Shown here piece by piece: positions 1,113 through 33,524 of a DNA stretch of 43,287 nucleotides. The stretch is taken from assembly GCA_002308795.1 (NCBI GenBank), contig DBVV01000072.1, forward strand, positions 818-44,104, given 5' to 3'. Numbering within the stretch: position 1 is the stretch's first letter; the number at the start of each line of letters is the position of its first letter. The notes below the pieces were generated by a model. The model was not told the DNA's origin. It ran no database searches and worked only from the letters and a program-made list of their open reading frames with translations. A program made the position numbers and the translations under genes. The stretch is from Mageeibacillus sp. UBA1255 (GTDB lineage Bacteria; Bacillota; Clostridia; UBA1212; UBA1255).

Positions 1113-1186
1113 TGGGGGCGAGGGGGCTCGAACCCATGACCTCTCGGATGTGAACCGAACGCTCTGACCAACTGAGCTACGTCCCC
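1113..1186 (-). tRNA. tRNA-Val (anticodon CAC)
   Basis: The reverse complement folds by hand into a 74-nt cloverleaf. The parts are acceptor GGGGACG, D arm GCTC/AGTTGGTCA/GAGC and anticodon stem TTCGG/CCGAG with loop TTCACAT. The T arm carries a TTCGAGC loop and the discriminator is A. No CCA is encoded. Two stem mismatches are present (see findings). Confidence 0.8.
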
Positions 1187-23333: not shown

Positions 23334-23387
23334 AACAATGCATGAACGTTCCGGAAGCGGACCCGATTGCGCTGGAGGTATAAATAT

Positions 23388-23912
23388 ATGAAAAAAAGGA
23401 AGCTGCTTACAGATATATTCACTGTGGTACTGATGCTGGCGATAGTTGTAGTCGTCCTCGCTTACCTCAACGTTTTTCCGGGTAAGGATGTGAACGAAAA
23501 GGGATCCCTTAACTACGCCATGGTCGCTTACGTGGGTATGCCGCTGGCACTTCTGTCCGTGCTGCTGATAGATCTTATATTCCCTCTGATCGATAACCGT
23601 AAAAGACTGTCTGAACCGGTCTTTATCGTAAAAGTGGTCGCAAAAACTCTGCTGTTCATTGCGGCCGTCGTAGTCGGAGTACTCTTCTTCCTCGTAAACA
23701 TCACTCCTCCGAAGAACGAATTCGTAAAAGTCGGTATCTTCTGCGCCCTTTATTTCGTGCAGTTCCTGATCAACCTCGATCCGCCGCTCAAGAAAAAGCT
23801 TGCCGCCCAGAAAGACAAGCAGGACGATAAAGATTATGAAGATTTCGATGACGATCTGGACGATGACGACGATTTCGACGATGACGATGACGAGAACACG
23901 TCCAAGAAATAA
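23388..23912 (+). CDS. Four-TM membrane protein with a poly-acidic C-terminal tail
   Basis: The start is at ATG 23388, with a GGAGG SD 8 nt upstream. It has four hydrophobic helices. The tail reads DDKDYEDFDDDLDDDDDFDDDDDENTSKK. Confidence 0.6.
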   Translation: MKKRKLLTDIFTVVLMLAIVVVVLAYLNVFPGKDVNEKGSLNYAMVAYVGMPLALLSVLLIDLIFPLIDNRKRLSEPVFIVKVVAKTLLFIAAVVVGVLFFLVNITPPKNEFVKVGIFCALYFVQFLINLDPPLKKKLAAQKDKQDDKDYEDFDDDLDDDDDFDDDDDENTSKK

Positions 23913-23937
23913 CTCCGTTGATAAAATGATATTTTCT

Positions 23938-23967
23938 CCGCCGGTGATCCAGCCGGCGTTTTTTTTT
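23938..23967 (+). terminator. Rho-independent terminator
   Basis: CGCCGG / CCGGCG 6-bp GC stem with an 8-nt loop, followed by nine T residues. Confidence 0.85.
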
Positions 23968-24031
23968 ACCGGCCGCAACGTGAAGAACGGTATAAAAAAA
24001 GAGAAAAAATAACAAAACGCAAAAAAAGTTC

Positions 24032-24060
24032 TTGACTGCCAAATAAAATATTGTTAAAAT
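24032..24060 (+). promoter_or_regulatory. Strong sigma-70 promoter of the aromatic amino-acid operon
   Basis: TTGACT (24032..24037), 17-nt spacer, extended -10 TGtTAAAAT (24052..24060). An A-rich UP-like tract lies upstream (24001..24028). Confidence 0.7.
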
Positions 24061-24106
24061 TCCGTCAATGCAAGTTCCGCCAGGTTCTTACAGGATTACA
24101 TACTGA

Positions 24107-24223
24107 ATGAAGGTGATGTTGATGCTGAATAATGATCTGAACGCAAACGGCCGTTTCACGTTCGTATATTCTGCATTCTATTTTGCCTCATCGGTACGTA
24201 ACTGGCGATGGCGGAAGTTCTGA
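24107..24223 (+). CDS. Candidate leader peptide rich in Phe/Tyr/Trp codons (38 aa, or 33 aa from ATG 24122)
   Basis: I translated it by hand as MKVMLMLNNDLNANGRFTFVYSAFYFASSVRNWRWRKF*. The internal ATG at 24122 has an AAGGTG SD 6 nt upstream. It lies in the 5' leader of the aro operon. Confidence 0.5.
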   Translation: MKVMLMLNNDLNANGRFTFVYSAFYFASSVRNWRWRKF

Positions 24224-24361
24224 TCTATTATTCTTATCCGGCGGAATACCGCCGCGGGTCCTGTTATCCCCGTAAAAATCAATACCTGAAACGAGCGCCG
24301 AAGGGACGGATATTGCCCTCCTGCCGCATTGAACGTATATTACATTAACGAGGGAAAAGAC

Positions 24362-25363
24362 ATGATAGTTGTCCTTAAATCAAACGTAAACGAAAACAGA
24401 CGCAAACAGCTGATAGACTGGCTCGAATCCCAGGAACTCAGAGTGCATATTTCCACCGGAGAATATCAAACGGTCCTGGGACTGATCGGAGACACTTCAA
24501 AGGTCGATATGGAGCTCATCGAGAGCCTCGACATAGTTGAATCGGTAAAGAGAGTTTCGGAAACTTTTAAACGGTGCAACAGAAAATTTCATCCGGACGA
24601 TACTGTCGTTGACGTGGCAGGTGTAAAGATCGGGGGAGGAAATTTCTGCATGATCGCAGGTCCGTGCTCCGTTGAGACCGAGGAACAGATCGTTTCGGTG
24701 GCAAAGGCTGTAAAAGCGTCCGGGGCCAATATTCTGAGAGGCGGAGCGTTTAAACCAAGGACCTCTCCTTACGATTTTCAGGGGCTTAAAGCGACCGGAC
24801 TCGAACTGCTGAAAATTGCAAGGCAGGAGACAGGCCTGCCGATCGTATCAGAGATAATGAGCGCACACGACCTTAAACTGTTCGAAGACGTCGATATCCT
24901 TCAGGTAGGCGCACGCAACATGCAGAACTTCGATCTGCTGATCGAGCTCGGTCACTTCGGAAAACCTGTCCTGTTAAAGCGCGGCCTGGCAAATACGCTG
25001 AAAGAACTGCTCATGAGCGCTGAATATATTATGGCGGGCGGTAACGAGCAGGTCATCCTCTGCGAGCGCGGGATAAGGACGTTCTCGGATTACTACAGAA
25101 ACACTCTTGACGTATCCGCGGTACCGATGCTGCACGAACTGTCGCACCTTCCCGTCATCGTTGACCCCAGCCACGCCACCGGAATAGCGCGGATGGTGCC
25201 TCCGATGGCATTGTCGGCCGTGGCCGCCGGAGCGGACGGACTTATCATCGAAGTCCATAACGATCCGATCCACGCTCTTTGCGACGGAGCTCAGTCTCTG
25301 AGACCGGAAGAATACGACGCGCTGGCCGGAAAGGTCAGGCGCGTAAGGGAGGCAATGCGATGA
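24362..25363 (+). CDS. aroF: 3-deoxy-7-phosphoheptulonate (DAHP) synthase, type I-beta with N-terminal ferredoxin-like regulatory domain
   Basis: KDO8PS/DAHPS-I-beta core motifs (GPCSVE, LRGGAFKPRTSPY, VDPSH). A ~70-aa N-terminal domain is present, as in the Thermotoga-type enzyme. The start is at ATG 24362 with a GAGGG SD. Confidence 0.9.
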   Translation: MIVVLKSNVNENRRKQLIDWLESQELRVHISTGEYQTVLGLIGDTSKVDMELIESLDIVESVKRVSETFKRCNRKFHPDDTVVDVAGVKIGGGNFCMIAGPCSVETEEQIVSVAKAVKASGANILRGGAFKPRTSPYDFQGLKATGLELLKIARQETGLPIVSEIMSAHDLKLFEDVDILQVGARNMQNFDLLIELGHFGKPVLLKRGLANTLKELLMSAEYIMAGGNEQVILCERGIRTFSDYYRNTLDVSAVPMLHELSHLPVIVDPSHATGIARMVPPMALSAVAAGADGLIIEVHNDPIHALCDGAQSLRPEEYDALAGKVRRVREAMR

Positions 25364-30864: not shown

Positions 30865-32127
30865 ATGAAACTGAGATGCGGACTGATAGGCGGAAGACTT
30901 GTCCACAGCTACTCGCCCCAGATACACGCCGAACTGGGCGACTACGACTATAAACTGTTCGAACTGAAAGAGAATGAAGTCGGGCCGTTCCTTAAGAGGG
31001 GAGAATTCGACGGACTTAACGTCACTATTCCGTACAAAAAAACGGTACTGCCTTTTATCGACGAGCTTTCGGACAATGCCGCAAGGCTCGGTTCGGTGAA
31101 CACCATAGTAAGGCGCGAGGACGGTACGCTTTTCGGTGACAATACAGATATTTTCGGCACCCGCAAGCTGATCGGTCTTTCAGGGCTCGATATTTCCGGA
31201 AAAAAGGTGATCGTGCTCGGTTCGGGAGGCACCGGCGTGACGTTTATGCAGGCCGTGCGCGATCTGGGCGGGACCGCCGTCAATATCAGCAGAAGTGGGG
31301 AGAACAATTACGGCAATATCGCGAAACATATTGACGCCGTGATGGTGATGAACGCGACGCCTGTGGGGATGTACCCGGATACCGGAAAATCTCCACTTGA
31401 CCTCAGCGCGCTTCCCAATGTAAAATGCGTGCTTGACGCGATCTATAATCCGCAAAAGACCGCGTTGCTGATGCAGGCCGAAAAACTCGGTATGAAGGCG
31501 CTGAATGGTCTTTACATGCTCGTCATGCAGGCAGTTAAGTCTTCGGAACTCTTTACGGGCAATGCGATACCGGAAGAAACGGCCGAAGCGGTATATGAGA
31601 GGATCGCGGCGAAGATGTACACGAGCGAGACAGGCAGCTGGGCGGCTCCCAGCCCGGAGGACAGACTTAAATTACTGGTGATCAACGGACCGAATATCAA
31701 TATGCTCGGCATACGCGAGCCCGATATTTACGGTAAGAACGATTACAAGGCGCTGCTCGGATTTGTTTCGAAAAGCGCGGAAGAAGCGGGGATCTGCGTC
31801 ACGTGCTTCCAGTCGAACCACGAAGGCGCGATAGTTGACGAGATACAGAACGCACTGGGAAAATTCGACGGCATCGTGATCAACCCGGCGGCGTACACCC
31901 ACACCAGCGTGGCGATACTTGACGCTTTGAAAGCGGTCAATATCCCGGCGGTCGAGGTACATATTTCCGACGTATCATCGCGCGAACCGTTCAGGCAGAT
32001 TTCGTACGCAGGAATGGCATGCGTAAAGACGTACACGGGACTCGGCTTCGAAGGATACAGACAGGCGATCCTGTTCCTGAAACAGTATTTAGAAGAAAAA
32101 CACACATATAGCAAACGAAATTCATAA
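30865..32127 (+). CDS. Fusion protein: shikimate dehydrogenase (N-terminal) + type II 3-dehydroquinate dehydratase (C-terminal)
   Basis: The AroE part has HSYSPQIH, NVTIPYKK, NTD and GSGGTG motifs. The AroQ part has LLVINGPNINMLGIREPDIYG, QSNHEG, INPAAYTHTS and EVHISD motifs. It is a single uninterrupted 420-codon frame. Confidence 0.85.
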   Translation: MKLRCGLIGGRLVHSYSPQIHAELGDYDYKLFELKENEVGPFLKRGEFDGLNVTIPYKKTVLPFIDELSDNAARLGSVNTIVRREDGTLFGDNTDIFGTRKLIGLSGLDISGKKVIVLGSGGTGVTFMQAVRDLGGTAVNISRSGENNYGNIAKHIDAVMVMNATPVGMYPDTGKSPLDLSALPNVKCVLDAIYNPQKTALLMQAEKLGMKALNGLYMLVMQAVKSSELFTGNAIPEETAEAVYERIAAKMYTSETGSWAAPSPEDRLKLLVINGPNINMLGIREPDIYGKNDYKALLGFVSKSAEEAGICVTCFQSNHEGAIVDEIQNALGKFDGIVINPAAYTHTSVAILDALKAVNIPAVEVHISDVSSREPFRQISYAGMACVKTYTGLGFEGYRQAILFLKQYLEEKHTYSKRNS

Positions 32128-32156
32128 CCGAAACGAAGAAAGGAAGGATGGTTGTT

Positions 32157-33524
32157 ATGAACGAAATTCCCTACAAAACCTACTTAAACGAAAATGAGAT
32201 CCCGACAGCCTGGTTCAATATCAGATCGGCTATGGTCAATAAACCCGCGCCTCTGCTTAACCCCGGCACACACCAGCCTATGAAGGCGGAAGAACTTGCC
32301 CCCGTGTTCTGTGAAGAACTGATCGCGCAGGAGCTTGACAACGACACCGAGTATTTCCAGATCCCCGACGAAGTGCTTAGTTTCTACAGAATGTACCGTC
32401 CGTCGCCGCTGGTAAGAGCTTATTTCCTTGAAAAAGCGCTCGGTACTCCGGCCCATATCTACTACAAGTTCGAGGGCAATAACACGAGCGGTTCGCATAA
32501 GCTGAACTCTGCTATTGCACAGGCGTATTACGCCAAGAAACAGGGCCTCAAGGGCGTTACGACCGAGACCGGCGCCGGCCAGTGGGGCACAGCGCTGTCA
32601 ATGGCCTGCTCGTATTTCGGCCTTGACTGCAAAGTGTTCATGGTTAAAGTTTCATACGAGCAGAAGCCGTTCAGGCGCGAAGTTATGCGCACGTACGGCG
32701 CGGACGTAACTCCTTCACCTTCGATGTCAACGAACGTCGGCCGCAAGATCCTCGAGGAATTCCCTGGAACTACCGGAAGCCTCGGCTGCGCGATCTCGGA
32801 AGCCGTAGAAGTCGCCGTCGGTACGCCCGGATACAGATACGTGCTCGGCAGCGTGCTTAACCAGGTGCTCCTTCACCAGAGCGTGATCGGCCTTGAGACC
32901 GAAGCGGCGCTTAATAAGATAGGCGTGAAGCCCGACATTATCATCGGCTGCGCAGGCGGCGGATCGAACCTCGGCGGACTTATTGCCCCGTTCATGCGCG
33001 ATAAGATCAAGGGCAAACTTGACGCACGCATCATCGCCGTCGAACCTATGTCCTGCCCGAGCTTTACGAGAGGCGTATACGCATACGATTTCTGTGATAC
33101 CGGTATGGTATGCCCGCTCGCGAAGATGTACACGCTCGGTTCGAGCTTCATCCCCGCACCGAACCACGCCGGCGGACTTCGCTACCACGGCATGAGCTCA
33201 ACGCTTTCACAGCTGTACGCTGACGGTTACATGGAAGCCGTTTCCGTGCCTCAGACCGAAGTGTTCAAGGCTGCCGAGCTGTTTGCGAGAGTTGAAGGCA
33301 CGCTTCCCGCTCCGGAGAGCTCTCACGCGATCAAGGTCGCTATCGACGAGGCGCTCAAGTGCAAAGAGACGGGAGAGGCGAAGAACATCGTGTTCGGCCT
33401 TACCGGAACAGGTTATTTCGACCTTGTGGCATACCAGAAATTCCACGACGGTGTTATGGACGATTATTGCCCGACCGACGAAGACCTCGCTGTTTCTTTG
33501 GCGAAACTTCCGAAGATCGACTGA
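32157..33524 (+). CDS. TrpB2-type tryptophan synthase beta-like PLP enzyme
   Basis: Long-form TrpB (~455 aa) with an N-terminal IPTAWFNI motif, the SGSHKLNSA lysine region and GCAGGGSN. ATG 32157 is preferred over 32148 because of SD spacing (AAGGAAGG). Confidence 0.85.
   Translation: MNEIPYKTYLNENEIPTAWFNIRSAMVNKPAPLLNPGTHQPMKAEELAPVFCEELIAQELDNDTEYFQIPDEVLSFYRMYRPSPLVRAYFLEKALGTPAHIYYKFEGNNTSGSHKLNSAIAQAYYAKKQGLKGVTTETGAGQWGTALSMACSYFGLDCKVFMVKVSYEQKPFRREVMRTYGADVTPSPSMSTNVGRKILEEFPGTTGSLGCAISEAVEVAVGTPGYRYVLGSVLNQVLLHQSVIGLETEAALNKIGVKPDIIIGCAGGGSNLGGLIAPFMRDKIKGKLDARIIAVEPMSCPSFTRGVYAYDFCDTGMVCPLAKMYTLGSSFIPAPNHAGGLRYHGMSSTLSQLYADGYMEAVSVPQTEVFKAAELFARVEGTLPAPESSHAIKVAIDEALKCKETGEAKNIVFGLTGTGYFDLVAYQKFHDGVMDDYCPTDEDLAVSLAKLPKID

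Follow-up and report, generated by a model that had tools for sequence, protein, structure and literature searches.

What controls the aromatic amino acid operon that begins with aroF in Mageeibacillus sp. UBA1255, and what is the purpose of the short, aromatic-rich open reading frame that precedes it? The question is raised by a stretch of 43,287 nucleotides (nt) of this genome (contig DBVV01000072.1, positions 818 to 44,104), here called the window, in which an upstream open reading frame (uORF) lies between a promoter and aroF. An original prediction, made from the letters of the window alone, took the uORF for a candidate leader-peptide attenuator, which might be read out by sequestration of the aroF Shine-Dalgarno (SD) sequence, by Rho or by arrest on the nascent peptide. 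Comparison with the window's own clade and with more than 100 further relatives supports the leader peptide, but neither SD sequestration nor Rho. We propose that the uORF may encode a regulatory leader peptide that reports aromatic amino acid supply to the aroF operon, and on these sequence comparisons we consider the chances of this to be about even. For the read-out, structure modelling leads us to a more tentative best guess, a hairpin and U-rich tract at the end of the uORF.

The uORF of the window

The operon content originally predicted (aroF, tyrA, aroB, aroA, aroC, pheA, aroE::aroQ and trpB2) is borne out by NCBIfam, which assigns the eight downstream genes in this order, the sixth as chorismate mutase-prephenate dehydratase (CM-pheA) and the last as TrpB-like. 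The leader in front of it is framed by the following features.

24032..24060, + strand: promoter, with a -35 box TTGACT (24032-37), a 17-nt spacer and an extended -10 box TGtTAAAAT (24052-60)
24110..24124, + strand: uORF ribosome-binding site AAGGTG (24110-15) and conserved start ATG 24122, from the alignment of seven sequences
24122..24223, + strand: leader peptide ORF of 33 codons, MLNNDLNANGRFTFVYSAFYFASSVRNWRWRKF followed by a stop, by translation (listed by the ORF finder from ATG 24107)
24350..24364, + strand: aroF SD GAGGG (24350-54) and start ATG 24362, from NCBIfam

The predicted promoter (TTGACT-17-TGtTAAAAT, 24032..24060) was found again by a promoter scan, in which TTGACT-17-TAAAAT matches 10 of 12 positions and has the TG extension. 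CTTGAC and the -10 box are kept in close relatives (alignment A2), and from the promoter spacing the transcript probably starts near 24067. The upstream gene closes with a canonical terminator (23939-23958, then T9), the only one nearby, so the leader starts its own transcription unit. The start of aroF is well defined, residues 1-332 from ATG 24362 matching the NCBIfam model for 3-deoxy-7-phosphoheptulonate synthase with E = 3e-143.

Read from ATG 24107, the ORF (24107..24223, + strand) translates as MKVMLMLNNDLNANGRFTFVYSAFYFASSVRNWRWRKF followed by a stop, exactly as had been translated by hand, and nine of its last 23 residues are indeed aromatic (5 F, 2 Y, 2 W). The sequence AAGGTG (24110-24115) also stands where it was said to be, 6 nt before ATG 24122. 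This is the only start codon that is in frame in all seven clade sequences described below, ATG 24107 being missing or out of frame in several relatives. Numbered from ATG 24122, the aromatic codons of the 33-codon peptide are F12, F14, Y16, F19, Y20, F21, W28, W30 and F33; the stop codon is at 24221-24223, and the uORF ends 138 nt before aroF. In the stretch FTFVYSAFYF, six residues out of ten are aromatic. Such a density is rare: among 372 short ORFs of 20-70 amino acids, taken from all six frames of the whole window, only one has six aromatics in ten residues.

Conservation in the window's own clade

Close relatives were found by an AroF protein search, and the leaders on their contigs were compared. 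Loci with AroF at least 86% identical to that of the window have a leader of the window's type, namely L164/L168 (96/95%), L169 (90%), L170/L171 (89%), L172 (87%) and L175 (86%). The clade set used here consists of seven sequences with AroF 86-100% identical, from about five lineages. The contig of L179 (P0005) ends inside the leader, and the same-species contigs L081-L083 are uninformative because they are nearly identical to the window.

From ATG 24122, the uORF is open, 32-33 codons long and ended by UGA in all seven sequences. The other two frames contain one to three stops each across the same region, and the single indel within the uORF alignment is of 3 nt. The SD and start region, GArGGTGAT..GATGCTGAA, is kept in all seven. 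In the peptide, Y20, F/Y21 and W30 are invariant, as are W30-R31 and the UGA stop, and F19, W28 and F33 are present in six of the seven. The N-terminal half drifts freely, as can be seen from the peptides MLNNIKTLNAYSANYGSAFYFAPAAFCWRWRKF (L169) and MLKRRIGTGTAYQFRLLACYFTAVSRNWRWRTV (L172). The L172 peptide ends in RTV, and that of L175 has L instead of W28. An alignment of relatives, proposed with the original prediction as a check, thus came out in its favour, in that frame and length are kept, the aromatic core is kept and other codons drift. The window leader has several of the features of a leader-peptide attenuator: a short ORF that has an SD and a start codon and precedes a biosynthetic operon, a cluster of codons for the amino acids which that operon produces, and a frame, start and stop conserved in the clade, with variable non-regulatory codons.

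The end of the uORF is conserved in a different manner.

24202..24223, + strand: conserved block CTGGCGATGGCGGAAGTTCTGA, encoding W28-R-W-R-K-F-UGA, from the clade alignment

This 22-nt block is identical in five of the seven sequences, synonymous sites included, with two changes in L175 and four in L172; its core GGCGGAAGTTCTGA is identical in six. It contains the motif GGCGGAA. A second motif, UUCCGCC, lies near the 5' end of the transcript, and the two motifs fall within the two most conserved blocks of the clade leader apart from the SD. The least conserved part of the leader is the 120-185 nt from the uORF to aroF, and beyond the hairpin P2 (see below) 100-170 nt are poorly conserved.

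A strain-level variant of the block, GGAAGTCCTGA, was seen at L167:1342-1363. In the uORF it replaces Phe33 by Ser, in the overlapping -1 frame it is silent, and in the helix formed with the 5' loop it disrupts one outer pair. The variant stems from one Logan assembly only and may be an error.

The wider family of aroF leaders

Outside this clade the picture is that of a large family. For its study, 160 loci that encode a relative of AroF, at 63-82% identity, were taken from collections of genomes and metagenomes. Most belong to Oscillospiraceae, Ruminococcaceae, Acutalibacteraceae, Lachnospiraceae and unclassified metagenome-assembled Clostridia, and a few are isolates. Upstream ORFs were counted over the 149 loci that have at least 250 nt upstream of aroF. 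A Phe/Tyr-rich uORF with at least six aromatics in ten residues is present on the forward strand of 115 of the 149, compared with four on the reverse complement and one after shuffling of the same regions. At a threshold of at least five in ten, there are 128 of 149 loci with a leader, 100-200 nt upstream of aroF. The stricter threshold yields 104 distinct peptides, for example MKSIFVFAYYYYFTMDS (Hominicoprocola fusiformis L001), MKNSYSNASYFYFYYYFTYNR and MKRNIFAAEYFYFYFINKS; further members occur in Angelakisella massiliensis (L060) and Pseudoflavonifractor sp. (L042). In 109 of the 115, the uORF is followed by a canonical terminator (a hairpin and a U-run), typically 20-60 nt before aroF. 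Leaders of this kind are here called classic.

The best 10-residue stretches contain 357 F, 375 Y and 10 W among 1040 residues. Because F and Y dominate and Trp is rare, the clostridial aroF leader family would appear to be a Phe/Tyr sensor. Of the original suggestion that all three codon types are used, sensing of Phe and Tyr therefore holds for the family, and sensing of Trp finds little there (W 10/1040). The two Trp codons of the window lie in the nucleotide-invariant block, which resembles a former RNA region 2 and pairs with the loop of the 5' hairpin; their conservation may for this reason reflect an RNA constraint rather than sensing.

One member of the family is richer in Trp. At L112:1371-1483 (JAEEGL013134636.1, AroF 72%) the leader peptide MMKITSLYWRWFSWSKFAAGHFALL has three Trp codons in its regulatory run (MMKITSLYWRWFSWSKF) and a canonical terminator after it, which makes Trp sensing possible in clostridial aroF leaders. 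This leader and the window block both contain UGG-CGN-UGG...AAG-UUY.

The nearest classic clade, with 25 distinct sequences (alignment A4), could be analysed by pairing. In its terminator (3:4), 92.7% of cells are paired, with four covarying pairs. In the 1:2 helix, in which the Tyr-Tyr-Phe-Thr codons (CUUUACU) face AGUAAGG around the stop codon, 91.6% are paired. For the antiterminator (2:3), UAAUUUGUGAUGC against GCGGCACAGGUUA, the figure is 83.7%, as against no more than 49% with the partner columns slid; its pairs are mostly conserved rather than covarying. As judged from these predicted pairings, the nearest classic clade is textbook four-region attenuation.

The leader types are distributed according to AroF. 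The loci with AroF 85% identical to the window (L173, L176 and L178) carry the classic type, and those at 86% or more share the window's type, so the window's leader is a recent derivative. Loss of the terminator is a derived feature of the whole window clade. The window leader shares AroF orthology and genomic position with the classic leaders (AroF 63-85% identical). A blastn search with it gave no similarity in 80 related loci, and outside the close clade it cannot be aligned. By eye, the window's GGTACGTAACTGGCGATGGCGGAAG resembles region 2 and the spacer of L090 and L176, GGTAAGGCGGATTTGTGATGCAGGCGGAAG. Homology of the window's RNA with the classic leaders is plausible from position, peptide core and this resemblance.

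A covariance model of the classic clade (R1) finds held-out classic members with 41-69 bits (E = 4e-13 to 6e-7). It gives no hits in L164-L175, and its weak alignment to the window places the window's local hairpin on the classic 1:2 hairpin, with the terminator deleted. A known leader or T-box had been named as something to be excluded with Rfam, and this exclusion was obtained: no family matches the window leader at gathering score and none at E up to 10 in 23900-24450, with T-box, Phe_leader, Trp_leader and the leu/phe leader included, and none, T-box included, matches the 17 related loci searched. Permissive Rfam settings give weak matches at 23914-23973, which are the terminator of the upstream gene.

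A Phe/Tyr uORF is missing altogether from a number of close aroF orthologues with identities of up to 80% (L004, L010, L013, L098, L107, L136, L149, L155 and others); the leader has been lost repeatedly. A palindrome, AGCGCTTTAAAGCGCT or near variants, occurs at the aroF promoters of six of 163 loci (L010, L109, L051, L005, L023 and L044), and a similar one in L098. Its place is between the promoter hexamers or just 5' of them, within the 20-70 nt around aroF promoters. L010 and L098 have the palindrome and no leader peptide; the window has no palindrome. One possibility is that the palindrome serves as operator for a DNA-binding regulator, acting in place of attenuation or in addition to it.

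RNA structure of the window leader

The structural features of the leader, in order from its 5' end, are these.

24068..24093, + strand: 5' hairpin P0, stem 24068-74/24087-93 (5/7 pairs in the window) and a 12-nt loop, 24075-24086
24168..24188, + strand: aromatic core UAUUCUGCAUUCUAUUUUGCC, codons 16-23, which is the 3' strand of helix P1 (RNAalifold)
24182..24215, + strand: local hairpin T, codons 21-25 (24182-24195) paired with 24201-24215, ending in GGCGGA and abutting the U-rich tract
24224..24237, + strand: U/C-rich tract TCTATTATTCTTAT directly 3' of the stop codon (alignments A2, A3)
24239..24254, + strand: GC hairpin P2, CGGCGG-AAUA-CCGCCG, from the sequence, with no U-run after it
24297..24334, + strand: imperfect GC-rich hairpin GCCGAAGGG..CCCTCCTGC, then CGCATTGAACG, found by eye and containing CCCTC

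One predicted contact is between the two ends of the uORF domain. RNAalifold on the seven sequences gives the P0 stem seven pairs, four of them with compensatory double changes. The P0 loop reads UUCCGCCnGG in five of the seven (UUCCGCCGGA in L175), and UUCCGCC (24075-24081) is present in six. This heptamer is the exact complement of GGCGGAA (24210-16) in the invariant block. With flanking A-U pairs and one G.G mismatch, the resulting helix B (24072-82/24209-19) has ten pairs and closes the whole uORF domain. It is present in the minimum free energy (MFE) structure of the window, and its ensemble probability is 0.77-0.99 in six of the seven sequences. By rough arithmetic, the chance of a perfect 7-mer complement between two pre-identified blocks is about 6 x 16 / 4^7 = 0.006. 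In L172 both partners have changed: the block there is GGCGCAC, and GCGCUGU can pair with AUGGCGC. A pairing of CGCCAG with CTGGCG was tried and rejected, since loop position 24082 varies freely and its partner is invariant.

A second helix, P1, joins the uORF's own SD/AUG region (24111-24130) to codons 15-22, ATTCTGCATTCTATTTTGCC (RNAalifold columns 54-59/126-131 and 64-73/111-120). L172 keeps P1 through changes on both strands (AUGCUGAAAAG with CUUUUGGCAU) and loses two aromatics, so the aromatic core owes its conservation in part to a constraint on the RNA.

Hairpin T forms in all seven sequences; its local MFE is -12.4 kcal/mol for the window and between -10.7 and -15.1 kcal/mol for the relatives. 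Its 3' arm is the GGCGGAA block, which can pair either with the 5' loop or with codons 21-25. In an equilibrium model with the ribosome masked on the SD/AUG, hairpin T takes the block in L169, L171 and L175 (0.69-0.76), and with the ribosome masked at Y20 the 5' loop takes it in six of the seven. In the window, L170 and L172 the choice is unmoved by ribosome position. Mutually exclusive helices, which the original prediction had proposed to look for by folding, are thus predicted here, with a choice that shifts with ribosome position in L169, L171 and L175. The motifs themselves are all where they were placed (GGCGG at 24210-14 and 24240-44, CCGCC at 24249-53, CCCTC at 24316-20, GAGGG at 24350-54 and the 6-bp hairpin at 24239-24254). 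The proposed alternative pairing of GGCGG (24210) with CCGCC (24249) exists in the window; across the clade, the block pairs instead as GGCGGAA (24210-16) with UUCCGCC (24075-81).

The U/C-rich tract is 12-17 nt long in the clade and more U-rich in the relatives, e.g. TTTCTTTTTCTTTC. The 16 nt past the last sense codon contain 8-12 U in all seven sequences, which falls short of what the terminator scan demands. A hairpin stands at the position of P2 in all seven, with different stems (CCGGC/GCCGG, CCGGCG/CGCCGG and CCGA/UCGG). The hairpin at 24297..24334 is possibly a relic of the ancestral terminator without its U-run, CCTCCTGCCGCATTGAACG resembling the classic CCTGTGCCGCATTTTTTCG by eye; the R1 model does not align this hairpin.

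A second ORF (24208-24348, + strand) begins with an ATG inside the invariant block (cgATGgcgg). It encodes 46 amino acids, seven of them Tyr (MAEVLIYYSYPAEYRRGSCYPRKNQYLKRAPKGRILPSCRIERILH followed by a stop), is shifted by -1 against the frame of the uORF, and stops 1 nt short of the aroF SD. In its frame the U-rich tract reads as Phe/Tyr/Ser codons in six of seven relatives. We considered it as the true leader and rejected it: it has no SD, the frame of the window and L164 is lost beyond about codon 9, aromatic codons are absent from L172 at this place, and in sister strains one TAT is replaced by CAT (His). Probably it is a side effect of the U-rich tract.

Proposed mechanism

We hypothesise that a ribosome translates the 33-codon ORF, and that its progress through F19-Y20-F21 (possibly also W28, W30 and F33) reports the supply of charged aromatic tRNA. 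The ancestor would have been a classic four-region Phe/Tyr transcription attenuator upstream of aroF, of the kind widespread in Oscillospirales- and Lachnospirales-like Clostridia. In the window clade it would have been rebuilt. The old stop codon would have been lost, so that the ORF now extends across the former region 2; the U-run of the old terminator would have gone; and two contacts would have been added, one between the 5' hairpin loop (UUCCGCC) and the last ORF codons (GGCGGAA), the other between the SD/AUG of the ORF and codons 15-22. GGCGGAA together with codons 21-25 would form the local hairpin abutting the U-rich tract at 24224-24237, and this could act as a non-canonical terminator or pause site. 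For the 3' arm of this hairpin there would be a competitor, the 5' loop. A ribosome stalled at F19-F21 would cover the 5' arm, the block would go to the 5' loop, and RNA polymerase would read into aroF.

In its full form, the proposal is of a read-out architecture without a terminator, in which the 5'-end hairpin loop pairs with the last ORF codons (WRWRKF-UGA) and the SD/AUG with the Phe/Tyr codons, the position of the ribosome is read through the 5'-3' contact that closes the uORF domain, the Trp codons serve as a third input, and the whole has evolved within the clade from a four-region attenuator. This is a possibility that we hold with considerable doubt.

A number of observations weigh against the proposal. 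The terminator scan finds no canonical hairpin and U-run between the uORF and aroF in the window, as had been noted originally, and no consistent one in the clade members L164, L170 and L175. The window's U-tract (TCTATTATTCTTAT) is interrupted, and it differs from the tract of the relative with 96% AroF identity. The best hit of the R1 model on the window is not significant (24170-24235, 5 bits, E = 0.35). In L172, Tyr16 is replaced by Leu and Phe19 by Cys while the pairing with the start region is kept. Hairpin T has a shared 3' arm, but its 5' arms and shapes differ among the seven sequences, and being about 0.3-1.7 standard deviations better than shuffles it is weakly supported. In the window the 5' loop holds the block in every modelled ribosome state (0.99), and therefore the model predicts no switch there. 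The evidence from covariation is thin because the seven sequences come from about five lineages. Finally, the proposed terminator includes the stop codon. Hairpin T would thus be blocked also by a ribosome that had not stalled but was closely coupled, and repression under plenty is unexplained without assumptions about pausing or uncoupling of RNA polymerase.

Alternative explanations

The leader could instead be a decayed attenuator, inherited but no longer regulating, with the operon constitutive or under control at another point, such as feedback inhibition of AroF. The absence of a canonical terminator and of a switch in the window's equilibrium model, the degradation of the window's U-rich tract relative to that of L164, and the complete loss of the leader in the related L004, L010, L098 and L107 are all consistent with decay. 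A useless leader should nevertheless drift, and yet the 22-nt block is identical in five of seven sequences and the GGCGGAAGTTCTGA core in six, and the conserved loop, the covarying 5' stem and the fixed ORF length persist across lineages whose flanks are largely unalignable; we consider decay unlikely. Another possibility is stall-dependent stabilisation of the mRNA, known from the ermC and ermA leaders in Bacillus. Here a stalled ribosome and the 5' hairpin would block 5'-to-3' decay, so that shortage would raise aro mRNA with no need of a terminator. About 110 nt separate the stall site from the predicted 5' end, and the conserved hairpin is at the very 5' end, both of which would suit this explanation. 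However, it leaves unexplained both the pairing of the last codons with the 5' loop and the conservation of the U-rich tract and the P2 hairpin, and we regard it as rather improbable. The same low probability attaches to an arrest of the kind seen in tnaC, at the nascent peptide or stop codon and possibly with Rho, in which WRWRKF-UGA would stall on a free aromatic amino acid and control the RNA just downstream. W30-R31 and UGA are invariant, WRWRKF is present in five of seven sequences, and the pyrimidine-rich tract begins right after the stop. Yet the block is also conserved at its synonymous sites (CGA, CGG, AAG, TTC), which points to a constraint on the RNA and not on the peptide; the peptide of L172 ends in RTV, and in that of L175 W28 is replaced by L; and the logic would be inverted for a biosynthetic operon. 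As for Rho, a C-rich, G-poor rut site was looked for and rejected, because the 80 nt past the stop have no consistent excess of C over G across the clade (C/G 23/17, 19/15, 13/18, 17/20, 18/19, 23/16 and 18/20).

The remaining two explanations seem to us very unlikely. Sequestration of the aroF SD, one of the read-outs originally suggested, would have CCCTC (24316-20) or the pyrimidine tract after the uORF paired with the aroF SD, and translation of the uORF would open it. In the MFE structure of the window, the region of the stop codon and pyrimidine tract does pair with the SD-AUG region of aroF, and the accessibility of the AUG rises from 0.02 to 0.62 with a ribosome at the uORF stop; in L175, the duplex of pyrimidine tract and ribosome-binding site reaches -19.4 kcal/mol, and only 2% of shuffles are as good. 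Against this, the duplex is no better than shuffles in the other six sequences, the mean SD accessibility has no consistent change when the ribosome is masked at four positions in the seven sequences, and the 120-185 nt between uORF and aroF are the leader's least conserved part. The specific pairing of CCCTC with GAGGG fares no better, since CCCTC is not conserved in the relatives and the modelled SD accessibility does not track ribosome position. An equally small chance is given to a structured RNA that binds a protein, a tRNA or a small ligand through the 5' loop and the UGGCGAUGGCGG block, the reading frame being incidental or secondary. The invariance of loop and block at the nucleotide level, and the way L172 keeps RNA pairing where aromatics are lost, would suit such an RNA. 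However, not one Rfam family, including T-box, is matched even at E up to 10; frame, length, SD and start are all conserved; and more than 100 relatives have an unmistakable leader peptide at the same place.

Comparison with known systems

The enterobacterial pheL-pheA and trpL-trp leaders resemble the window in having a short ORF with its own SD, codons for the products of the pathway, and alternative pairings that overlap the ORF, and the classic clostridial relatives reproduce their full four-region logic. Unlike pheL and trpL, the window has no hairpin and U-run 3' of the ORF, the stop codon lying inside the only terminator-like structure; the end of the ORF pairs with a 5' hairpin loop and the SD/AUG with the regulatory codons; and the leader heads the common pathway plus tyrA, pheA and trpB2, not one branch. 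The Rfam models Phe_leader and Trp_leader are not matched.

In the pyrBI attenuator the leader ORF runs through the terminator, and the signal is pausing of RNA polymerase at low UTP. The window ORF likewise overlaps its only terminator-like hairpin, so that proximity of the ribosome would prevent the hairpin; unlike pyrBI, the proposal for the window involves codon-specific stalling and not pausing of the polymerase.

The aroR leader peptide of Corynebacterium glutamicum precedes aroF and has a regulatory Phe-Tyr-Phe (Neshat et al. 2014, as summarised in PMC11802643). According to that summary, stalling of the ribosome at Phe-Tyr-Phe raises transcription, via transcription attenuation (PMC11802643). 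As far as this description goes, the position directly upstream of the 3-deoxy-D-arabino-heptulosonate 7-phosphate synthase gene is the same and the tripeptide is equal to F19-Y20-F21 of the window; the phylum is different, and the window has no canonical terminator. The uORFC-13-1 motif has 24 representatives, from Acholeplasma or unknown organisms and always upstream of aroF (Brewer et al. 2021, PMC8632094). It is a candidate uORF with promoter, ribosome-binding site, start and U-rich Phe codons, beside an intrinsic terminator (PMC8632094). It is very like the classic clostridial leaders. With the window, compared by description as Rfam 15 holds no model of it, the match is in gene association only, and the window variant has no terminator.

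To the classic clostridial leaders the window is similar in position and in type of peptide core, with an aromatic run after A (SAFYF in the window, FAYAYYF in the classic type). It differs from them in that they have 6-9 aromatics in ten residues, a stop codon before region 2 and a strong terminator.

Leader-peptide attenuation is regarded as rare in Firmicutes, in which T-box and protein-mediated control dominate (PMC2965389); the same 2010 survey regarded leader peptides in Firmicutes as a new finding. In the literature searched we found three related cases (aroR, uORFC-13-1 and the 2010 Firmicutes survey), none of which is the clostridial aroF family, and no description of that family. The Phe/Tyr leader family upstream of aroF in Clostridia is thus apparently undescribed and uncatalogued. 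Leader-peptide attenuation itself, including before aroF, is already known; what appears to be new is the clostridial family. The window's version, without a terminator and closed by the 5' loop, is a further departure from it.

More than 100 distinct Phe/Tyr leader peptides precede the aroF operons of gut and rumen Clostridia, including some cultured isolates, and so ribosome stalling appears to govern the common aromatic pathway of an important group of anaerobes in the gut. Such control would need some coordination of transcription and translation in these organisms, a matter currently debated for Firmicutes. The window clade can be regarded as a natural experiment, in which a textbook attenuator would have been rebuilt within 15% AroF divergence, losing its terminator and gaining strongly conserved RNA contacts; its read-out would show how attenuators change mechanism. 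The leaders also mark regulatory uORFs missed by gene callers, and could act as sensors of aromatic amino acids in anaerobes.

Neighbouring genes

Within the operon, aroE::aroQ (30865-32127, + strand) encodes a shikimate dehydrogenase fused to a type II dehydroquinase, and the last gene (32148-33524, + strand) a TrpB-like (TrpB2) enzyme, instead of a trp operon. Of the eight operon genes checked, none was recognised as a shikimate kinase. The ORF finder starts tyrA at TTG 25279, with an 85-nt overlap with aroF (25279-25363 / 25360). In the identical contig L081, gene calls give a TyrA of 277 amino acids whose start overlaps the aroF stop in the usual 4-nt overlap, which suggests translational coupling.

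The only Rfam match of the window at gathering score is a tRNA gene at 1113-1186 (- strand). Directly 5' of the leader there is an ORF of 181 amino acids (23367-23912, + strand) with no NCBIfam match and a long acidic C-terminal tail rich in Asp, Glu and Phe. A counterpart of 174-176 amino acids is syntenic in L164-L171.

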